From NCBI GenBank assembly GCA_965249135.1, contig OZ252220.1, forward strand, positions 1,248,001 through 1,312,000: a DNA stretch of 64,000 nucleotides, given 5' to 3'. Origin of the DNA: Alphaproteobacteria bacterium (GTDB taxonomy: Bacteria; Pseudomonadota; Alphaproteobacteria; GCA-2746255). This document shows, in pieces, positions 33,036-40,566 of the stretch. Numbering within the stretch: position 1 is the first letter of the stretch; each line of letters opens with the position of its first letter. The position numbers and the translations under genes are program-made. Below the pieces are notes generated by a model that was given only the letters and a program-made list of their open reading frames with translations, searched no databases and was not told the DNA's origin.

Positions 33036-33710
33036 TTAGCCATCGCGCAGGATTTGCAGCATCCGCAGGCGCACGGACTCGATCTTGAGCAGTTCCTCGA
33101 TGAAGTACTCGCAGTTGTCGCCGCAATCTGTCTGGCGCCATCGAATGATGGCGTCGTAGTCGATCTCCAGCAGGTCACAGAACTCCCGCCCGGTCATCGC
33201 CTCATCGAAGGCTATTCGTCGCTTAAAGCCGTTCCATATCGCTTTCCGGTCATCCTGATTGAAGGCGCAGAAGTGCGCCCGGAATCGATACTGGATGTGC
33301 TGGGCGTTGTGCTCGATGAACCCATGCATGGCCTGGCGCTCTGCGCTGGCCTTCTTGGTGTCGAACACATGGCCGTCCTTCAACTCGACGATGTGGCATG
33401 TTTGCATGCCGCCACGGCGCTTGAACACCATGAAGTCCGGTTCCGATCCGGCGAAGTCCAGGGTGGTGCTCCGCTTGATTTGGCGCTTGCGGGCGAGCAA
33501 CACGCCTTCGGGCATGATCTCCTGCTCTAGGAAGGCGTCGAGGCCGGAGATGTTGGGAACCGCTGCCACGATCATTGCTTCGAGTTCCGAGCCCGACGAG
33601 ATGACGGCGGACTGAACCTTGCTGGCCAACTCGCCTAACGCGGCATTGCCGAACAGTCGCTCGTAGGCGCCCGACGTGTTCTTGGGCTTGGCGTTCCGAA
33701 GGCGGGCCAT
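33036..33710 (-). CDS. putative type II restriction endonuclease (PD-(D/E)xK)
   Basis: EPDFMVF...HIVELKDG catalytic-like motif; 5 nt downstream of the MTase; TAA stop lies inside the TIR. Confidence 0.7.
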   Translation of the reverse strand: MARLRNAKPKNTSGAYERLFGNAALGELASKVQSAVISSGSELEAMIVAAVPNISGLDAFLEQEIMPEGVLLARKRQIKRSTTLDFAGSEPDFMVFKRRGGMQTCHIVELKDGHVFDTKKASAERQAMHGFIEHNAQHIQYRFRAHFCAFNQDDRKAIWNGFKRRIAFDEAMTGREFCDLLEIDYDAIIRWRQTDCGDNCEYFIEELLKIESVRLRMLQILRDG

Positions 33711-33715
33711 GGAGC

Positions 33716-34471
33716 CTAGTCGTTCAGGTCACAGCCGAGGAAGGTGCGCCGCCTGTTCCGCGCTGCCTGAAGCACAGAGAATGAGCCGGCTGCCGGGTCG
33801 ATCACAAAATCGCCTTCGTGGCTCACGGCGGCCATTAGCTCGCCCTGAAGGTCCACCGGCTTCGTGTGCGGATGGTTGCGTTGCGAGACCTGCTCTTGAA
33901 TCACGTCCGGGATGTTGTGAATCTTCCACACGCCTTTGGCTTTGCGCGGCTGCTTCTGCAAGACGACGCAATATTCCGCCCGGCGCCGGGTGCGATAGCC
34001 CATGCCGAAAGTGCCTTTGTCCCATGTCACCAAGTCCACGATGTCGAGACTCGTTCCGTCCAGCCAAGCATGGATGCCTTGGCAGAGATGAAACTTGTCG
34101 ATCCACAGGAACAGGTGGCCGGACGGAATCAGCGCCCGGTCAATGCCGCGCACGAAGCCGCCGATCACGGCGTCGGTCATCTGCTCCAAGGCACATCTCC
34201 GCTTGCCGCGGTCCTTGCCTTCGTTGCCGTAGGACAGTTTTTCGAGCACGCCGCGATATTGCGGATCAAGGAACGCTACGGGGATAGCGTTGGCCGGAAG
34301 CACGGACAGGAACTCAAGGCCGTCCATCTTGAGCCGGACGTTTGGCTTTAGCGCATCGGGCAGCGCTAATGGCGGCGCATGGACGGTTCTTTGCCCCGAG
34401 AACACCGTCGCCGTGAGCGTGTCCATCGTTGTGTCGATAGGCTCTACAAGCTGCTTGGCTTTGCGCGGCAT
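33716..34471 (-). CDS. N6-adenine/N4-cytosine DNA methyltransferase (beta-class order)
   Basis: motif IV FLDPQY, HPHTKP, motif I VIDPAAGS; start MPRKAK with GGGGA RBS. Confidence 0.85.
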   Translation of the reverse strand: MPRKAKQLVEPIDTTMDTLTATVFSGQRTVHAPPLALPDALKPNVRLKMDGLEFLSVLPANAIPVAFLDPQYRGVLEKLSYGNEGKDRGKRRCALEQMTDAVIGGFVRGIDRALIPSGHLFLWIDKFHLCQGIHAWLDGTSLDIVDLVTWDKGTFGMGYRTRRRAEYCVVLQKQPRKAKGVWKIHNIPDVIQEQVSQRNHPHTKPVDLQGELMAAVSHEGDFVIDPAAGSFSVLQAARNRRRTFLGCDLND

Positions 34472-34481
34472 GGTGTTCCCC

Positions 34482-35417
34482 TTAATCGGCGGTGAGTCCC
34501 TTGTAGCCCAGCACGCCGCCCGCGTTGCGAAGGCTCTGGTCAATATGGGCCATGGTGCCCCAGTCGCGCCGATTGTGTCGAGTGGCAAACTCATCGACAT
34601 AGCGGCCCATGTGCTTTTCGGAGAAGTGGTGGAAGGTTCCGATGTAGCCGCGCTTCAGGAGCGCCCAGAACGACTCGATGCCGTTCGTGTGTGCCATCCC
34701 GCTGACGTATTCGCCGACCGAATGCTCGACGGTCTCGTGCGTGTATTCGCCCATGCCCTGATAGGCTTTGTGGCCGTCCGTGTAGATCGTTGTGCCGGGC
34801 TTGACCTCGGAACGCACCGCGCCTTGCAGGTGCGCCGCGTCCGTCCCGTCAATCGGGCGGGCTTTGATGCGCCCAGACTTGCGCTCGCGCATTCCGATAA
34901 CCGGCTGCTTCCCGACACCGCCGCGCCCCATGCGGAGCTTCTTGTTCGAGTGCTTGTTCTTTTCCTTGCCGCCGATATAGGTCTCGTCAACCTCAACCTC
35001 ACCAGACATCGGATTGCCGACGCCGGACTTGTTCAGCCACATCTCGCGGATGCGCTGCGAAAGATACCATGCGGTTTTCTGCGTGCAGCCAAGCTCGCGG
35101 GCCATCTGGCAACTTGAGATCGACTTCTTGGCAATGACCATGAGATAGATCGCGTAGAGGCATTTGCGTGGCGACAGGTTGGCCGAATGGAACACCGTTC
35201 TGGTCGTGACCGAGAAGTGCTTGCGGCAATCCTTGCAGCGATAGGGTTGGGGGTTCTCGTTCGCGACATGGCTGATCCGAACGCTCCCGCAGTGCGGGCA
35301 GTAAGGATCGTCGCCCCAGCGCATCCGCTCGATGTGAGCCCGCGCATCCTTGTCCGTCGGGAACCGCGCCATGAAGTCCCAGGTGCTCATGATCTCGGGT
35401 TTGTTGCGCTTCGCCAT
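34482..35417 (-). CDS. IS1595-family (ISXO2-like) transposase
   Basis: Zn ribbon CPHC...CKDC, HTH, EVDETYIGG, YTDG, HTNGIESFW, RYVDEF; GGGGAG RBS. Confidence 0.95.
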   Translation of the reverse strand: MAKRNKPEIMSTWDFMARFPTDKDARAHIERMRWGDDPYCPHCGSVRISHVANENPQPYRCKDCRKHFSVTTRTVFHSANLSPRKCLYAIYLMVIAKKSISSCQMARELGCTQKTAWYLSQRIREMWLNKSGVGNPMSGEVEVDETYIGGKEKNKHSNKKLRMGRGGVGKQPVIGMRERKSGRIKARPIDGTDAAHLQGAVRSEVKPGTTIYTDGHKAYQGMGEYTHETVEHSVGEYVSGMAHTNGIESFWALLKRGYIGTFHHFSEKHMGRYVDEFATRHNRRDWGTMAHIDQSLRNAGGVLGYKGLTAD

Positions 35418-35439
35418 GTTCTGTCTCCCCATGGCTAGA

Positions 35440-35468
35440 AATATAGGGTTACGACGGCGTAATGTCAA
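35440..35468 (-). promoter_or_regulatory. sigma70-type promoter for tnp-M-R
   Basis: minus strand TTGACA-17 nt-TATATT, 22 nt upstream of the transposase ATG. Confidence 0.75.
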
Positions 35469-35566: not shown

Positions 35567-35640
35567 TGGTTGGGGCGGCAGGATTCGAACCTGCGATCAC
35601 GGGACCAAAGCCCGTTGCCTTGCCACTTGGCTACGCCCCA
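35567..35640 (-). tRNA. tRNA-Gln(TTG)
   Basis: TGGGGCGTAGCCAAGTGG...ACGGG-CTTTGGT-CCCGT...GGTTCGAATCC...CCCCAACCA, 74 nt, CCA encoded. Confidence 0.96.
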
Positions 35641-35844
35641 AAACCGGTGCCCGGAAGGTAGGCGCAAAAAGCCCGCCTCCGCAAGGGAGGGCCCTTACCT
35701 TCCGGCCCGCCTTCGCGCCACCAGAAAGGGCGGCGAAGAATAAAGGAGGACCCGACCCGGAAGCGCCGGAAACGAGCCGGGCCTTAAGGGCACTACTCCT
35801 TGTGCCCGCCGGGGCGACCGGGGTAGGATTTCGGGGAGGGAAGT

Positions 35845-36015
35845 ATGACCGGCTGGAAACTCGAAGGCATCTCGACGACGGCCCGTGAGGCGGCGAAGGA
35901 AGCCGCCCGGGAGCAAAAACTACCCTTGGGTGAATGGCTAAGCCGGTTGATTCTAAGGGCCTCCGAGAGCCGGAAAACGGGCCCCGGGGGGCCCGGAAAA
36001 CCGGGAGCGGATTAG
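35845..36015 (+). CDS. 56-aa small protein consisting of a PodJ N-terminal-like (RHH-like) motif
   Basis: hand translation MTGWKLEGISTTAREAAKEAAREQKLPLGEWLSRLILRASESRKTGPGGPGKPGAD; GGGGAGG RBS; aligns with the N-termini of the next two genes; below the ORF-track length cutoff. Confidence 0.72.
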   Translation: MTGWKLEGISTTAREAAKEAAREQKLPLGEWLSRLILRASESRKTGPGGPGKPGAD

Positions 36016-36036
36016 CCCTACGCCGCACTACTTTTC

Positions 36037-36065
36037 TTGACTTGGGTAGCGCCACCCCTTACATT
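36037..36065 (+). promoter_or_regulatory. sigma70-type promoter
   Basis: TTGACT-17 nt-TACATT upstream of the CDS at 36136. Confidence 0.55.
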
Positions 36066-36135
36066 TCGCCCGTTTTGTTGGACCGTTAACGAACCCCGGC
36101 CAAGGGAGACGGATCACCAATTAAGGCGAGGTCGG

Positions 36136-36651
36136 ATGGCTTCCCAGTCGCCCTGGAGCATTAAAGGCATCGATCCGGAAGCGCGCGAGGCCGCCAAGAT
36201 GGCGGCCTGCAAGGCCGGTATGACCCTTGGCGGCTGGCTCACCCGGACCATCCTTGCCATCGCCGCCCACGAGCTCAAGCGGGACGGCGGCAAGAAGGCG
36301 CCGCCGGAATGGGCGGAGAGCGACGGTCCCGACCTTTCGGCCCCCTCGCCGCCGGCGCTGACGGAGCAGGCGATCCTCAAAAGCATCCAGCAGCTCATCC
36401 AGCGGGTCGAGCATATCGAGCAGGTGACCCAGGAGACGATCGCGGCGATCACCGAGAAGGTCGGGGAACTCGCCGAACGCATCCAGGAGGTGAACGAGAA
36501 GACCGGTCTTACCTCCGGCCCGATGGAGCGGGCGCTACAACGATTGTCGGAACGGATGGACCATCTGGATGCGGAAGAAGCACCGTCGCCCGAGGAGGCC
36601 CATCCCCGGCACCGCCGCCGCCGCTTCGCCCGCATGTTCAACCTTCCCTGA
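36136..36651 (+). CDS. PodJ N-terminal-like motif plus coiled-coil protein (171 aa)
   Basis: MASQSPWSIKGIDPEAREAAKMAACKAGMTLGGWLTRTI resembles the Caulobacter PodJ N-terminus; heptad-rich middle. Confidence 0.75.
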   Translation: MASQSPWSIKGIDPEAREAAKMAACKAGMTLGGWLTRTILAIAAHELKRDGGKKAPPEWAESDGPDLSAPSPPALTEQAILKSIQQLIQRVEHIEQVTQETIAAITEKVGELAERIQEVNEKTGLTSGPMERALQRLSERMDHLDAEEAPSPEEAHPRHRRRRFARMFNLP

Positions 36652-36664
36652 AGGAGAGCCTCTT

Positions 36665-37849
36665 ATGACGACGCAAGGGGCCTGGTACCCGAAGGGCGTC
36701 GGCCCGGAAGCCAGGCGGGCGGCAAAGGAGGCGGCGAAACGGGCCGGCGTGCCGATCGGGCAATGGGTCGAGGCGATGATCCTTCGCCACACCCGAAGCC
36801 CAGGCCTTAAGACCCGCCCTAGCCCGGAGGCCCGAAAGGCTCCGGAGTTCGAACTCCTCTCCCGCGAAGAGCCGATGGAGGAAATGGGAGGCGGGCGCTA
36901 CCCGGCACTGCCTCCACGCCGGATCCACCGGCAGCTCTGCTGGCTGGCCGGCGGGTCCCTGGTCATGCTCATCTTCCTTATCGTAGGCTTCGGGCTTTTC
37001 TGGATCGGGCAGCAGCAGGAAGCCCAACCCCAGCGGACCGCCGACGCGCAAGCCAAGCCTTCGCCGCCGACGGATCTCAGCCGGGCCACGTTGAACCAGA
37101 TCCGCAGTGCCGCCCAGGCCGGCGACCGGGAGGCCCAGTTCACCCTCGGTGCGCGCTACGCGCTGGGCGAGTGGGTGCCCAAGGACGAGCTGGCCGCCGC
37201 CGACTGGTTCGAGAAGGCGGCCCTTCAGGGCCACCCGGAGGCCCAATACCGGTTAGGGCTCCTCTACGAGGAAGGGCGCGTCGTCGCGCAGAACCTTTTC
37301 GAAGCCTTCTTCTGGTTCCAAAGCGCGGCCGACCAGGGCCACCTCGAATCCTAGTTCAAGGCCGGCGTCGCCTATGCGGAAGGCATCGGCATCGGCGAGG
37401 ATCCGAAGAAGGCGGCAACGTGGCTGCTGGCCAGCGCCGAGCGCGACCACGCCGGCGCCATGGTTCGCCTGGCCGAACTTTACGATCGCGGCGAAGGGGT
37501 GGCGAAGGACCCGGAGGCGGCGGCCCGCTGGAAGGCGATGGCTGCCGCCATCGCGCCCGAGGAAAAACCGGGAAAGACGGATGTCCAGATCGTCATCCTC
37601 GACAAGGCGCCGATGCCTAGCGGCCTGGAGGCGGCGCTGGATCCGCGCGCGCTCGAGACGATGGAGCGGCTGCTCGCCGGGCTCGGTTTCGAGCCGGGCC
37701 CCGTCGACGGGGCCGTCACGGACGAGACGGTGGCGGCGATCCGACTCTATCAAGCCTTCGCGGGCCTTGAGGTCGATGGCCGGCCCAGCGCGCTCCTCCT
37801 CGAAGAGTTGCGTCAGGTGTCCCAGACGGCGGGGCTGAAGCTGAACTGA
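36665..37849 (+). pseudogene. PodJ-like protein (N-motif, TM, Sel1 repeats, peptidoglycan-binding domain) with an in-frame TAG at 37352-37354
   Basis: the Sel1 pattern continues in frame through the stop (QGHLES*FKAGVAYAEGIG); C-terminal LGFEPGPVDG...TVAAIRLYQ...GLEVDG is PG-binding-like. Confidence 0.75.
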
Positions 37850-37869: not shown

Positions 37870-38760
37870 TCACGCGCCGGAAAGAAGCTCCGTCGCCGCG
37901 ATCCACCAGTTGGGGTGGGAATTTAAGAGCGCTTTCGCCGCCGCTTCGGCCGCGAGGCGGTCGCCATAGAGCCCGAAGCAGGTCGTCCCGCTTCCCGACA
38001 TCCGCGAAAGCAGGCAATGGGGCGTGCCGGCGATGGCCGAAAGCACGCCGGCGATCTCCGGCGCGAGCGCGACGGCGGCCTCCGTGAGATCGTTGCGCCG
38101 GGCCTTCAAATAGAGCGCGAGCGCCGCCGCATCCTTGGGCAAGGCCTGGCAAGCGGCGGGTTTCGACACCGTCCCCCCATGGGCCTTAAAGACGGCCGCC
38201 GTCGAAAGGGCCGCGCCCGGATTGACCAGAACGAGACCGGCCAAGGGGAGCCCCTGAACCGGCGTCAGTATCTCGCCGACGCCGCCGACGAAGGCCGGGC
38301 GGCCTTCGATGCAGACAGGCACGTCCATGCCGAGTTCGAGACCAAGGTTTTGAAGCGCGGGCGCCTCAACGCCAAGCCCCCAAAGTCGGGTGAGACCCAA
38401 AAGCGTCGCCGCCGCATCCGCCGAGCCGCCGCCGAGGCCGGCCGCGACAGGCAGGTTCTTGGTCAGCGTGATCGCCGCGCCATCGTTCACATGGTGAAGC
38501 CGGCCCAGATGACGGGCGGCCCGAAGCACGAGGTTGTCGTCGAGGTCCACCTCGCCAAGGGCGGCGGCAAAGGGGCCGCGAAGCACAAGGCTCAACGTGT
38601 CGTCCGGGCGAAAGGCGAGTTCGTCGTGGAGCCTCGCGAAGACGACGAGACTGTCGAGCAGATGGTACCCGTCTTTGCGGACGCCGGTGACGTGGAGGTA
38701 GAGATTGAGTTTCACCGGTGCCGTAAGATGAAATTCGCCGCGAACCGTCTTTTCCGTCAC
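37870..38760 (-). CDS. ispE: 4-diphosphocytidyl-2-C-methyl-D-erythritol kinase
   Basis: APVKLNLYLHV, DGYHLLDS, PVAAGLGGGSADAA, MSGSG. Confidence 0.95.
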   Translation of the reverse strand: MTEKTVRGEFHLTAPVKLNLYLHVTGVRKDGYHLLDSLVVFARLHDELAFRPDDTLSLVLRGPFAAALGEVDLDDNLVLRAARHLGRLHHVNDGAAITLTKNLPVAAGLGGGSADAAATLLGLTRLWGLGVEAPALQNLGLELGMDVPVCIEGRPAFVGGVGEILTPVQGLPLAGLVLVNPGAALSTAAVFKAHGGTVSKPAACQALPKDAAALALYLKARRNDLTEAAVALAPEIAGVLSAIAGTPHCLLSRMSGSGTTCFGLYGDRLAAEAAAKALLNSHPNWWIAATELLSGA

Positions 38761-38766
38761 CGTTCT

Positions 38767-40566
38767 TCAGTCGCCCTTGTCAACGGTGGCGGGAAGACCA
38801 CTATGAAGTTTCGACTGGATGCTGGCGTTGAGTTTGGGGTCGGCATCGTTGTCGGCGTTGAAGGCAAGCGCGCGCCGCCACTGGAAGCGTGCTTCGTAGC
38901 GCCGGCCGACCTGCCAATAGACGTCGCCAAGGTGGTCGTTGATGATCGGATCGTGGGGCCGAAGCTGCACCGCCAGTTCGAGATGCGGAAGCGCCTCGGC
39001 ATATTGTCCGGTGCGATAAAGTGCCCAGCCCAAGCTGTCGACGATGTAGCCATCCTTCGGCCTTAGCTCGATGGCGCGTTCGATCAGGCGCTGGGCCTCG
39101 TCCATCCTCTCGCCCTTCTCCAGCCAGGCATACCCTAAGTAATTGAGAACATAGGGTTGATCCGGCTGGAGTTCAAGCGCATGCAGCAGATCCGCCTGGG
39201 CGCGCTCCCACTCGTCCGACTGCTCGAGCGCGATGCCCCGTGCATAGAAAAGGGTCCAATGATGGGGCTCGATCTTCTTGATGCGCTTGATCGCCTCACC
39301 GTATGCGGCGACCGCCTCCCGGTAGAGATCGTGCAAGCGAAGCAGCGCACCCAGTTCGACCAGCGCATCGATTCGTTCCGGACGTTCCCTCGCCATCGCC
39401 TTCAGCAGACGCTTTGCTTTCAGCCTCTCATTCAGGGCATCGTAATTTTTGGCGATGCGAATCCGGCTAAGCCATCCCCAGGCGGTGTCGGGAGGGATCC
39501 GTTCGTACATCCGGATGGCGGCGCGGTGGCGATTGTGTACCTCATGAATCTCCGCCACCAGGACGTTGGCCTCGTAAAAATCCTTGCGAAGATTTATCGC
39601 CAGCTGGGCAAAGACCAGTTCGAAGCCGAACGAATTTTGCTGATAAAGCGCACTTTGCTGATGAAAGAGAACGGCGAGACTGTAAAAGACTTCCGCCACC
39701 CCCTCGATGGGGTTTCCCACGAGACGCCGCGTGGGCTTCTTATGGTCGAGACGGCCCTTGCGTGCGTCCAGGACGAGGGAGGCGCTGTTGTCGGAAATAT
39801 ATTTTTCGTAAAGGTCGCGGGCTTCCGCTTTACGGTTGTGCCGCTCATAGAAATTGCCCAATGCCTCGACGGCCCGCAAGGTCGGCGAATAATTGCCGAG
39901 CGCCGTGATGTAGTTGCCTTCCGCCGAATCGGTTTTGTCGCTGAGGTCATAGAGCAGCGCGAGATGATATTTATAGACCGCCTCGAAACCTTCCGTTTTC
40001 GCAAGCTTGCCCATCACTTCGATGGCCTTCTCACGGTCGCCCAAAGCGAAGTGTGCCCACGCCGAAAAAAGCGGACGAAGATAGACGTTCAAGCCGCGCC
40101 GTGGCATCTTCTCCAGATGGGCGAGCGCCTCAGCGTATCGTTTGTTCCTAAATTCGCGCTCTACTAAATAAAGTCCGGCGATCGGATCGTCCGGTCCGGC
40201 TTCGACGATGCGCTGAGCCAGTTTGTCGGCTTCCTGAAAGCGGCCCTCGCCGGCCACCAGATAGAAGGTGCGGCGAAGCAGCTCCAGGTTCTCCGGCTCA
40301 TAGGCCAAGGCGGCGGCCATGAAGTCGGCGGCCGCACCGAAGTCGCGGATGAGGGTGGCATGCTGGCCGGCGAGGTAGCTGCCGGCGAAGTTCGACTCGA
40401 ATTCCTCCGGTTGGACGCCACGATAGGACGCGCTGTCCTCTCGCCCCTCGTCACAGGCGGCAAGGAGAAGGATCGAAGCCAGGCCCAGAGCGCCGGCACG
40501 TAAGCGGCGCAGGGCGGCCCTCAACGCTTGCCCGAACTCCCCAGAAAAGAACAAAAAATCTGCCAT
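38767..40566 (-). CDS. tetratricopeptide-repeat lipoprotein
   Basis: lipobox-like LLAAC, many TPRs, LNYLGY, DSLGW, DHLGDVYW. Confidence 0.85.
   Translation of the reverse strand: MADFLFFSGEFGQALRAALRRLRAGALGLASILLLAACDEGREDSASYRGVQPEEFESNFAGSYLAGQHATLIRDFGAAADFMAAALAYEPENLELLRRTFYLVAGEGRFQEADKLAQRIVEAGPDDPIAGLYLVEREFRNKRYAEALAHLEKMPRRGLNVYLRPLFSAWAHFALGDREKAIEVMGKLAKTEGFEAVYKYHLALLYDLSDKTDSAEGNYITALGNYSPTLRAVEALGNFYERHNRKAEARDLYEKYISDNSASLVLDARKGRLDHKKPTRRLVGNPIEGVAEVFYSLAVLFHQQSALYQQNSFGFELVFAQLAINLRKDFYEANVLVAEIHEVHNRHRAAIRMYERIPPDTAWGWLSRIRIAKNYDALNERLKAKRLLKAMARERPERIDALVELGALLRLHDLYREAVAAYGEAIKRIKKIEPHHWTLFYARGIALEQSDEWERAQADLLHALELQPDQPYVLNYLGYAWLEKGERMDEAQRLIERAIELRPKDGYIVDSLGWALYRTGQYAEALPHLELAVQLRPHDPIINDHLGDVYWQVGRRYEARFQWRRALAFNADNDADPKLNASIQSKLHSGLPATVDKGD

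Follow-up and report, generated by a model that had tools for sequence, protein, structure and literature searches.

A PodJ-related locus apparently split over three tandem genes with a common, predicted ribbon-helix-helix-like N-terminal module

PodJ is a central polarity scaffold of Alphaproteobacteria. In a 64,000-nt stretch of an alphaproteobacterial genome (contig OZ252220.1 of assembly GCA_965249135.1, positions 1,248,001 to 1,312,000; hereafter the window, whose numbering is used for the locus), three consecutive plus-strand genes at positions 35845-37849 start with one and the same sequence pattern, and a preliminary description of the window suggested that they spread the architecture of PodJ over three proteins. 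Is this common N-terminus genuine, how do the three genes relate to PodJ, and what could a module repeated in three neighbours be for? The comparisons reported here point to a split variant of PodJ built around a previously undescribed ribbon-helix-helix (RHH)-like module, with three apparently old tandem paralogues as its carriers.

Three adjacent genes with the same N-terminus

The first gene (35845..36015), hereafter the mini gene, encodes 56 amino acids and comprises the module alone (W4 to W31, nt 35854-35937) followed by a Gly/Pro-rich tail. The second (36136..36651) encodes 171 amino acids, with the module at nt 36154-36237, a disordered linker, two long helices (residues 77-146, nt 36364-36573) and the C-terminal sequence RFARMFNLP. 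The third, the anchor gene, starts 13 nt beyond the end of the second. Its first piece (36665..37354) has 229 codons and a TAG, and contains the module (nt 36683-36766), a linker of about 55 amino acids, a transmembrane segment (residues 91-115, nt 36935-37009) and Sel1 sequence up to the stop. The in-frame TAG (codon 230, 37352..37354) lies inside the Sel1 region, and the remainder in the same frame (37355..37849) holds the last Sel1 repeats and a PG_binding_1 domain (residues 331-380, nt 37655-37804). All three genes have their own start codon, with a Shine-Dalgarno-like purine run ahead of the ATG; for the mini gene this is GGAGG, 7-8 nt upstream. The locus is bounded upstream by a tRNA-Gln gene (anticodon TTG; 35567..35640, minus strand; called by ARAGORN, Rfam tRNA 67.2 bits), which is found at the same place in congeners.

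The three pattern-bearing open reading frames (ORFs) of the preliminary description are all present, and they are the only ones of their kind in the genome: a six-frame translation of the whole 2,118,282 bp yields exactly three matches to W-x3-G-[IV]-x3-AR-x-AAK-x-AA-x6-[LI]G-x-W, all at this locus. Over their first ~40 residues the proteins align without gaps, the mini-protein being 46-49% identical to the other two. Searched against its own genome, the 171-aa protein finds only the two neighbouring N-termini below an E-value of 1e-4 (4.5e-6 and 2.7e-5), and the next matches, at E = 0.19 and 0.47, are unrelated. The former was considered as a fourth module and rejected, being an alpha/beta-hydrolase-like ORF that lacks the motif. 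Because all three strict matches in the genome lie here and the next-best match is unrelated, the shared pattern is genuine and not a chance resemblance.

The mini gene deserves separate scrutiny, since a short frame with no Pfam match might be a chance ORF or a non-coding leader whose likeness to the motif is accidental. Several lines of evidence oppose this, beginning with the confinement of the pattern to this locus and the GGAGG ahead of the start. The order tRNA-Gln, mini gene, gene of ~170 aa, gene of ~400 aa and ispE is kept in all three congeners with enough flanking sequence (G001, G002 and G005; the contig of a fourth, G003, stops inside the third gene and lies outside this count). 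Their mini orthologues, located between tRNA-Gln and the ~170-aa gene, have 52-56 codons, begin with the same MTGWKLE and are 59-73% identical, so that the ORF on whose conservation the preliminary description had made its proposal depend is syntenic in every congener counted. Over 40 alignable codons (Nei-Gojobori), the ratio of nonsynonymous to synonymous divergence (dN/dS) is 0.25, 0.39 and 0.09, hence below 0.4, in the three of six pairs with unsaturated dS; in the remaining three dS is saturated and dN is 0.17-0.24. The ORF had also been described as unlisted, but gene finders call it as a protein in a public collection, together with six homologues of 56-72 aa from several assemblies, two of which are NCBI hypothetical proteins adjoining a 171-aa homologue. 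Judging from this conservation, we regard the 56-aa ORF as a real gene under purifying selection and give a chance frame next to no credence.

Relation to PodJ and the interrupted anchor gene

How closely does the locus resemble PodJ? A profile of the 171-aa family (21 sequences) aligns, from its positions 1-5 to positions 142-165, with the first 130-200 residues of all eight long PodJ-like proteins (875-1041 aa) from other families, and later in these chains two to three additional copies of its coiled-coil unit follow. The motif carried by all three proteins of the locus (PWSVKGI..AREAAK..A..GMTLGxWL) is placed by the module profile at residue 1 of the same eight proteins. Long module-bearing proteins carry Sel1 and PG_binding_1, with matches to the Sel1 region in G015 and G009 as well, and several 171-aa homologues are labelled 'localization factor PodJL' by JGI. 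Because the profile covers the N-terminus of all eight long forms, the 171-aa protein corresponds to the PodJ module plus the first coiled-coil unit. The third protein, read through the TAG, contains four Sel1 repeats (E = 7.9e-28) and PG_binding_1 (E = 2.2e-10) by Pfam, and its hydrophobic segment at residues 91-115 is predicted from the sequence to be a single transmembrane segment. A coiled coil is found in the 171-aa protein (helices 77-146) and in neither of the others; the third protein is thus PodJ without coiled coils or the long disordered region, and the mini-protein the module alone. Both the kinship with PodJ and the distribution of module, coiled coil and envelope anchor over separate ORFs, as the preliminary description had them, are borne out by these comparisons.

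Compared with Caulobacter PodJ and its Agrobacterium and Sinorhizobium homologues, the locus is alike in having the module, the coiled-coil unit, a single transmembrane segment, and periplasmic Sel1 repeats with a peptidoglycan-binding domain. It differs in several respects. PodJ has all its domains on one polypeptide, whereas the parts here are distributed over three, all of which have a module of their own. At ~394 aa, the anchor is shorter than the single-gene forms of 875-1041 aa. A module-only mini-protein is present, and the anchor gene is interrupted by a TAG in this strain. Literature on PodJ combined with Sel1 and peptidoglycan binding in alphaproteobacteria contained nothing relevant on a split arrangement, and the papers listed on PodJ paralogues, judged by title and abstract and with subscription papers mostly outside the search, describe no satellite paralogues. 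In the accessible portions of two studies, the PodJ N-terminal region is described as 'coiled coils 1-3' (PMC8980812, PMC9926476), and Caulobacter PodJ lacking residues 1-249 ('CC1-3') neither accumulates at the pole nor condenses as readily (PMC8980812). This published deletion takes the module along, so that effects of the module and of the coiled coils are not separated.

Two further observations concern the PodJ-like proteins and their partners. The 171-aa family has a conserved short tail after a basic stretch (36622-36648), which reads ARMFNLP here and RLFG, RLFS or KLFGN in distant orthologues, and which could be a binding peptide or a membrane-touching helix. The genome also has a PopZ-family gene (PF10691 = DUF2497, E = 6.1e-26) outside the window, at G000:C1:409352-409585 (L084), a candidate counterpart of PopZ, the Caulobacter partner of PodJ.

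The third gene was presented in the preliminary description as one open frame; its module, transmembrane segment, Sel1 repeats and peptidoglycan-binding domain were all found, but the single frame was not, as the TAG at codon 230 leaves the last Sel1 repeats and the peptidoglycan-binding domain behind a stop in the sequence as it stands. Reassignment or suppression of this codon was rejected. The genome contains no tRNA with anticodon CTA, and TAG terminates 212 of its 828 long frames; for these reasons, the TAG is an ordinary stop. The orthologues in G002, G001, G005 and G003 (56-73% identical) have no internal stop, the codon in question specifying K, Q or T. Three other studies provide near-identical contigs (X3, X4 and X5; 19-26 differences over 1,301 bases), all with C at 37352 and hence CAG (Gln). 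The T is present only in run X1, which is identical over the stretch at a depth of 3.9 and may be the source of this assembly. Either this strain has acquired the TAG by a recent nonsense mutation, or the consensus is in error; in the lineage as a whole, the third gene is intact. If real, the change (Q230 to stop relative to the closest relatives), found in one low-depth sample, would remove the peptidoglycan-binding domain. PodJ1 of S. meliloti Rm1021 is reportedly a truncated gene, and the TAG would likewise give an anchor without its peptidoglycan-binding end. The same likeness holds for PodJS of Caulobacter, which the available part of PMC9926476 describes as shortened by proteolytic removal of the periplasmic part; here, by contrast, a single nonsense codon in that one sample is responsible, which may be an error or a recent mutation and not a regulated form.

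Distribution and age of the module

Is the arrangement peculiar to this genome? We searched a profile of 12 module sequences in 201 genomes of the class and found the module in 56 of them, 19 of which have at least two matches within 5 kb on one contig. Of the 54 module-bearing genomes outside the genus of the window, 17, from many families, have two to four module genes in tandem; most other module-bearing genomes have one match, located at the start of a 900-1100-aa frame. The tandem arrangement is widespread and not peculiar to this genome, a point that the preliminary description had missed. Three module genes are ordered short, middle and long in five arrays (G182, G161, G135, G108 and G132).

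Sixteen of the 17 arrays outside the genus were analysed further, leaving out G084 with its weak matches. A module-bearing Sel1 protein is encoded in 13 of these 16, and in nine of those 13 it has PG_binding_1 too. The first gene is a mini gene of 57-72 residues (counted from the module) in G108, G132 and G173. A hidden Markov model of the post-module part of the 171-aa family matches the middle genes of G146, G108, G132 and G022 (two genes) at E-values of 1e-26 to 1e-32, and that of G135 at 1e-17. Because this part alone, without the module, matches middle genes elsewhere, the middle gene forms an orthologous family that extends well beyond the genus.

Resolution is poor in a tree built from 57 modules, with 48 columns and 36 of its 54 inner branches open; copies from the same genome do not group on it. 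Gene-position labels do cluster: they require 13 changes against 35.8 in shuffles, and none of 200 shuffles gave a value as low. The minis of the genus group with other first-position modules and with ParB-linked modules. Since the modules group by gene position and not by genome, the paralogues are old.

The reach of the module beyond these genomes was surveyed in a library of 1.84 billion proteins, where the profile finds 3,479 representatives (at 50% identity) at E ≤ 0.001 and 1,425 at E ≤ 1e-10. Almost all of them have the module at residue 1, with 2-4 copies in a few. Among the best 150, a Pfam scan of the 123 new representatives longer than 100 aa assigned Sel1, with or without PG_binding_1, to 18 and ParB domains to two, while 103 matched no family. 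The 25 representatives of at most 100 aa among the same 150 were not counted as mini-proteins, several of them looking like contig-end fragments of long PodJ. Chains with two to four tandem modules include P0031-P0034, L065:3662-4441(-) and L071:3798-5936(+), of which P0033 and P0034 have three and four copies, respectively, ahead of ParB domains; such tandem copies might allow intramolecular pseudo-dimers.

ParB-like relatives also occur within the arrays. In five of the 16 (G022, G055, G102, G177 and G086), a ParB-like gene with an N-terminal module lies directly upstream of the PodJ-like gene, and its product has ParB_N, usually HTH_ParB, and ParB_C behind the module. These genes (L065:5629-6558(-), L071:1589-3670(+), L073:1458-2513(+), L074:2674-3873(-) and L075:2804-4066(-)) adjoin the PodJ-like Sel1 gene in five unrelated alphaproteobacterial genomes. 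A separate, better-scoring canonical ParB is encoded elsewhere in four of the five, and no ParA gene was found beside those ParB-like module genes whose surroundings were inspected. In view of this distribution, the module is a portable tag, found at the N-terminus of at least four kinds of co-encoded protein.

Some observations concern the flanks of the locus. After the PodJ-like gene, on the opposite strand, come ispE (GHMP kinase) and the gene for a large TPR protein, in the window (37870-40566) as in G177, a distant genome (L074:37-1445), which suggests an old, conserved neighbourhood. On the other side, between the upstream metabolic genes and tRNA-Gln, the minus strand of the window encodes an IS1595-family transposase (34482-35468), an N6/N4 DNA methylase (33716-34600) and a 224-aa ORF (33036-33710). 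Because the upstream gene ends ~30-40 nt from tRNA-Gln in the congeners G002 and G005, the segment 33036-35468 looks like a strain-specific insertion beside the tRNA.

Predicted fold and possible role of the module

What kind of domain is the module? The AlphaFold2 model of the mini-protein, built from a 48-row module alignment, has helices at residues 11-23 and 28-44 with residues 1-10 as coil, and a predicted local distance difference test (pLDDT) score of 71.5 overall and 83-87 in the helical part. The model of the 171-aa protein has helices at 14-26 and 31-49, the disordered linker, helices at 77-123 and 128-146, and a short C-terminal helix. A Foldseek search of the PDB returned a list dominated by RHH proteins, with root-mean-square deviations (rmsd) of 0.6-1.2 Å over 30-37 residues and E-values that are all above 1. 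In an exhaustive structural alignment against 48,161 PDB representatives, the best 50 are nearly all RHH proteins with Z-scores of 4-6.2 over 40-52 residues, including the MazE6 N-domain (7wj0), TacA, the PutA RHH domain (2rbf), NikR, CdbA, AmrZ (3qoq), FitA, MatP, Arc (1arq), ParD, TraM and CopG-like proteins; the better of these alignments have an rmsd of 1.4-3.9 Å over the same 40-52 residues. Read against known signatures, the loop G-M-T-L-G-x-W resembles the G-x-[ST]-x-x start of RHH helix B. With two helices at the RHH positions and best matches of this kind, the models agree with the RHH-like fold proposed in the preliminary description, and the shared motif is predicted to be an RHH-like domain of ~40-45 residues for which Pfam and NCBIfam have no model. 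The weight of this assignment lies in the consistency of the match list and not in the Z values.

With a putative strand region followed by helix A, a G-x-T loop and helix B, all within ~45 residues, the module resembles the RHH (Arc/MetJ/CopG) superfamily. Unlike its members, it has no sequence-level membership, and it sits on scaffold, membrane-anchor and ParB-like proteins instead of repressors or antitoxins. A look-alike cluster search with the 171-aa protein returned only clusters of 'hypothetical protein' and one RHH_1 cluster at 0.76, below the lead threshold. A reading of the mini-protein as the RHH-class antitoxin of a type II toxin-antitoxin pair was rejected: no toxin gene is adjacent, the neighbours being tRNA-Gln, the 171-aa coiled-coil gene, the Sel1 gene and ispE. 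Literature pairing PodJ with ribbon-helix-helix brought up only studies of MatP, most subscription papers being outside the search.

RHH domains of the Arc/MetJ/CopG superfamily fold only as obligate intertwined dimers, and in this genus the anchor, the coiled-coil protein and the mini-protein share no structured cytoplasmic element other than the module. For these two reasons the module is most likely a dimerisation plug, and we lean, by a modest degree, towards the view that the three proteins co-assemble through it as homodimers, heterodimers or both. The third protein is the envelope anchor, with its module, short linker, one transmembrane segment, periplasmic Sel1 repeats and peptidoglycan-binding domain. 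Module-module dimers would join the anchor, the coiled-coil protein and the mini-protein, the coiled coil of the 171-aa protein would add higher-order assembly, and the mini-protein, having no effector parts, would act as a cap or modulator. The hetero-oligomerisation put forward in the preliminary description was addressed by complex prediction for one pair, residues 1-52 of the 171-aa protein with the mini-protein, which was returned with 'weak support' (score 0.44; best of three controls 0.00). The runs agreed in at least 91% of contacts with a partner pLDDT of at least 69, and no interface was reported. Of 157 solved complexes used in calibration, 116 came up to the mark, as did two of 215 mismatched pairs; scores of at most 0.60 comprise only 18 of the 157 solved complexes and both of the passing mismatches.

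A number of points weigh against co-assembly through an RHH-like plug. No Pfam RHH model fits the module, which has no Pfam or NCBIfam match at E ≤ 1, and its profile reaches at best E = 0.2 against PDB sequences. The N-terminal strand appears as coil, not as strand, in both monomer models. No Foldseek match reaches E = 0.001, and Z-scores of 4-6 fall in the 'middling' range of the aligner, modest values being expected for a domain of 45 residues. The predicted interaction is a single weak pass, of a kind that, lacking a strong prior, proves wrong more often than not; given the many RHH dimers with solved structures, it may reflect a memory of them, and hence likeness only. The conserved differences between the positional classes of module could equally mean that each class forms homodimers only. 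In the larger arrays, where the long gene keeps a coiled-coil unit of its own, co-assembly need not use the module. Finally, a genuine TAG would mean that this strain has a damaged locus.

The three genes could instead be old tandem duplicates that act independently, each product pairing with itself, the common N-terminus reflecting descent, and the mini-protein being a reduced leftover with a minor or separate role. Module classes that are specific to gene position and kept across families would be expected if the proteins had separate specificities. The genes in first position are diverse (57 to 164 aa, or ParB-like), the genome is small (2.12 Mb), and its anchor gene has lost the coiled coil relative to arrays elsewhere. 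Yet the adjacency of module genes kept in 17 of 54 genomes outside the genus argues for a functional link, and a leftover would not fit easily with purifying selection on the mini gene. The anchor protein of the genus, moreover, has no structured cytoplasmic part other than the module through which it could be connected, and the 171-aa/mini pair did score 0.44 where the best control scored 0.00. We consider independent action unlikely.

A different role would follow if the module were a working DNA-binding RHH domain, with the mini-protein as a small autorepressor in the manner of CopG, Arc or omega and the larger proteins tethering DNA as a polar anchoring device. The closest structural matches are indeed DNA-binding RHH repressors and antitoxins, and the size of the mini-protein and its first place in the locus suit RHH autoregulators as we know them. 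The ParB-like module proteins next to PodJ-like genes in five of 16 arrays, and the two library representatives with three to four modules and ParB domains, point in the same direction. So does a block, GCACTACT(Y3-4)CTTG, that stands ahead of both the mini gene (35790-35802) and the 171-aa gene (36025-36039) and is kept at both places in congeners. Against a regulatory role of this block, the degenerate GCACTACT..CTTG pattern is not enriched genome-wide (seven occurrences versus 4-9 in shuffles); because it is no commoner than chance, the block may stem from duplication of a promoter region instead of being a regulon motif. The copy ahead of the 171-aa gene falls within a conserved intergenic element, GCACTACTTTTCTTGAC (36025..36065, plus strand), that is kept in all four congeneric sequences and overlaps a sigma-70-like site, TTGACT-17-TACATT, just past the mini stop, likely the own promoter of the 171-aa gene. 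The upstream region has no inverted or direct repeat typical of RHH operators; the search yielded only a hairpin resembling a terminator beside the tRNA and, within the mini tail, a GC palindrome. The outward strand positions of the mini-protein read K-x-E, acidic where Arc and CopG are understood to contact bases. The available text of one Agrobacterium study can be read both ways: PodJ is required there for placement of the origin at the old pole, but enrichment of origins in chromatin immunoprecipitation (ChIP) of GFP-PodJ is barely above background, although an N-terminal fusion might mask an N-terminal RHH domain (PMC9239152). On balance, DNA binding by the module seems improbable to us.

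Returning to the module as a dimerisation plug, its spread over differently built neighbours raises a broader possibility, which we put forward tentatively and hold to be rather doubtful: that the N-terminus of PodJ is an RHH-type plug that defines a family of pole-associated clients, namely minis, coiled-coil proteins, peptidoglycan-anchored Sel1 proteins and a ParB-like DNA clamp, usually encoded by adjacent genes. A ParB-type nucleoprotein complex and cytoplasmic scaffolds would then be tied, through mixed RHH dimers or a common DNA site, to a polar landmark anchored in peptidoglycan; the mini-protein would adjust assembly as a capping subunit, and part of the self-assembly phenotype ascribed to 'CC1-3' of Caulobacter PodJ would go to residues 1-45.

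Should the first 40 residues prove to be an RHH fold that forms obligate dimers and is common to neighbouring genes, this would provide a concrete assembly mechanism for the N-terminus of PodJ. It would also define a large domain family, with the 3,479 representatives counted above, that has so far lacked a Pfam or NCBIfam model. The accessible text on Agrobacterium attributes origin anchoring at the old pole to 'other unknown origin-anchoring proteins' (PMC9239152). By linking PodJ-type anchors to an orphan ParB-like protein in several lineages, the module, if its assignment is right, would bear on how origins are anchored there.

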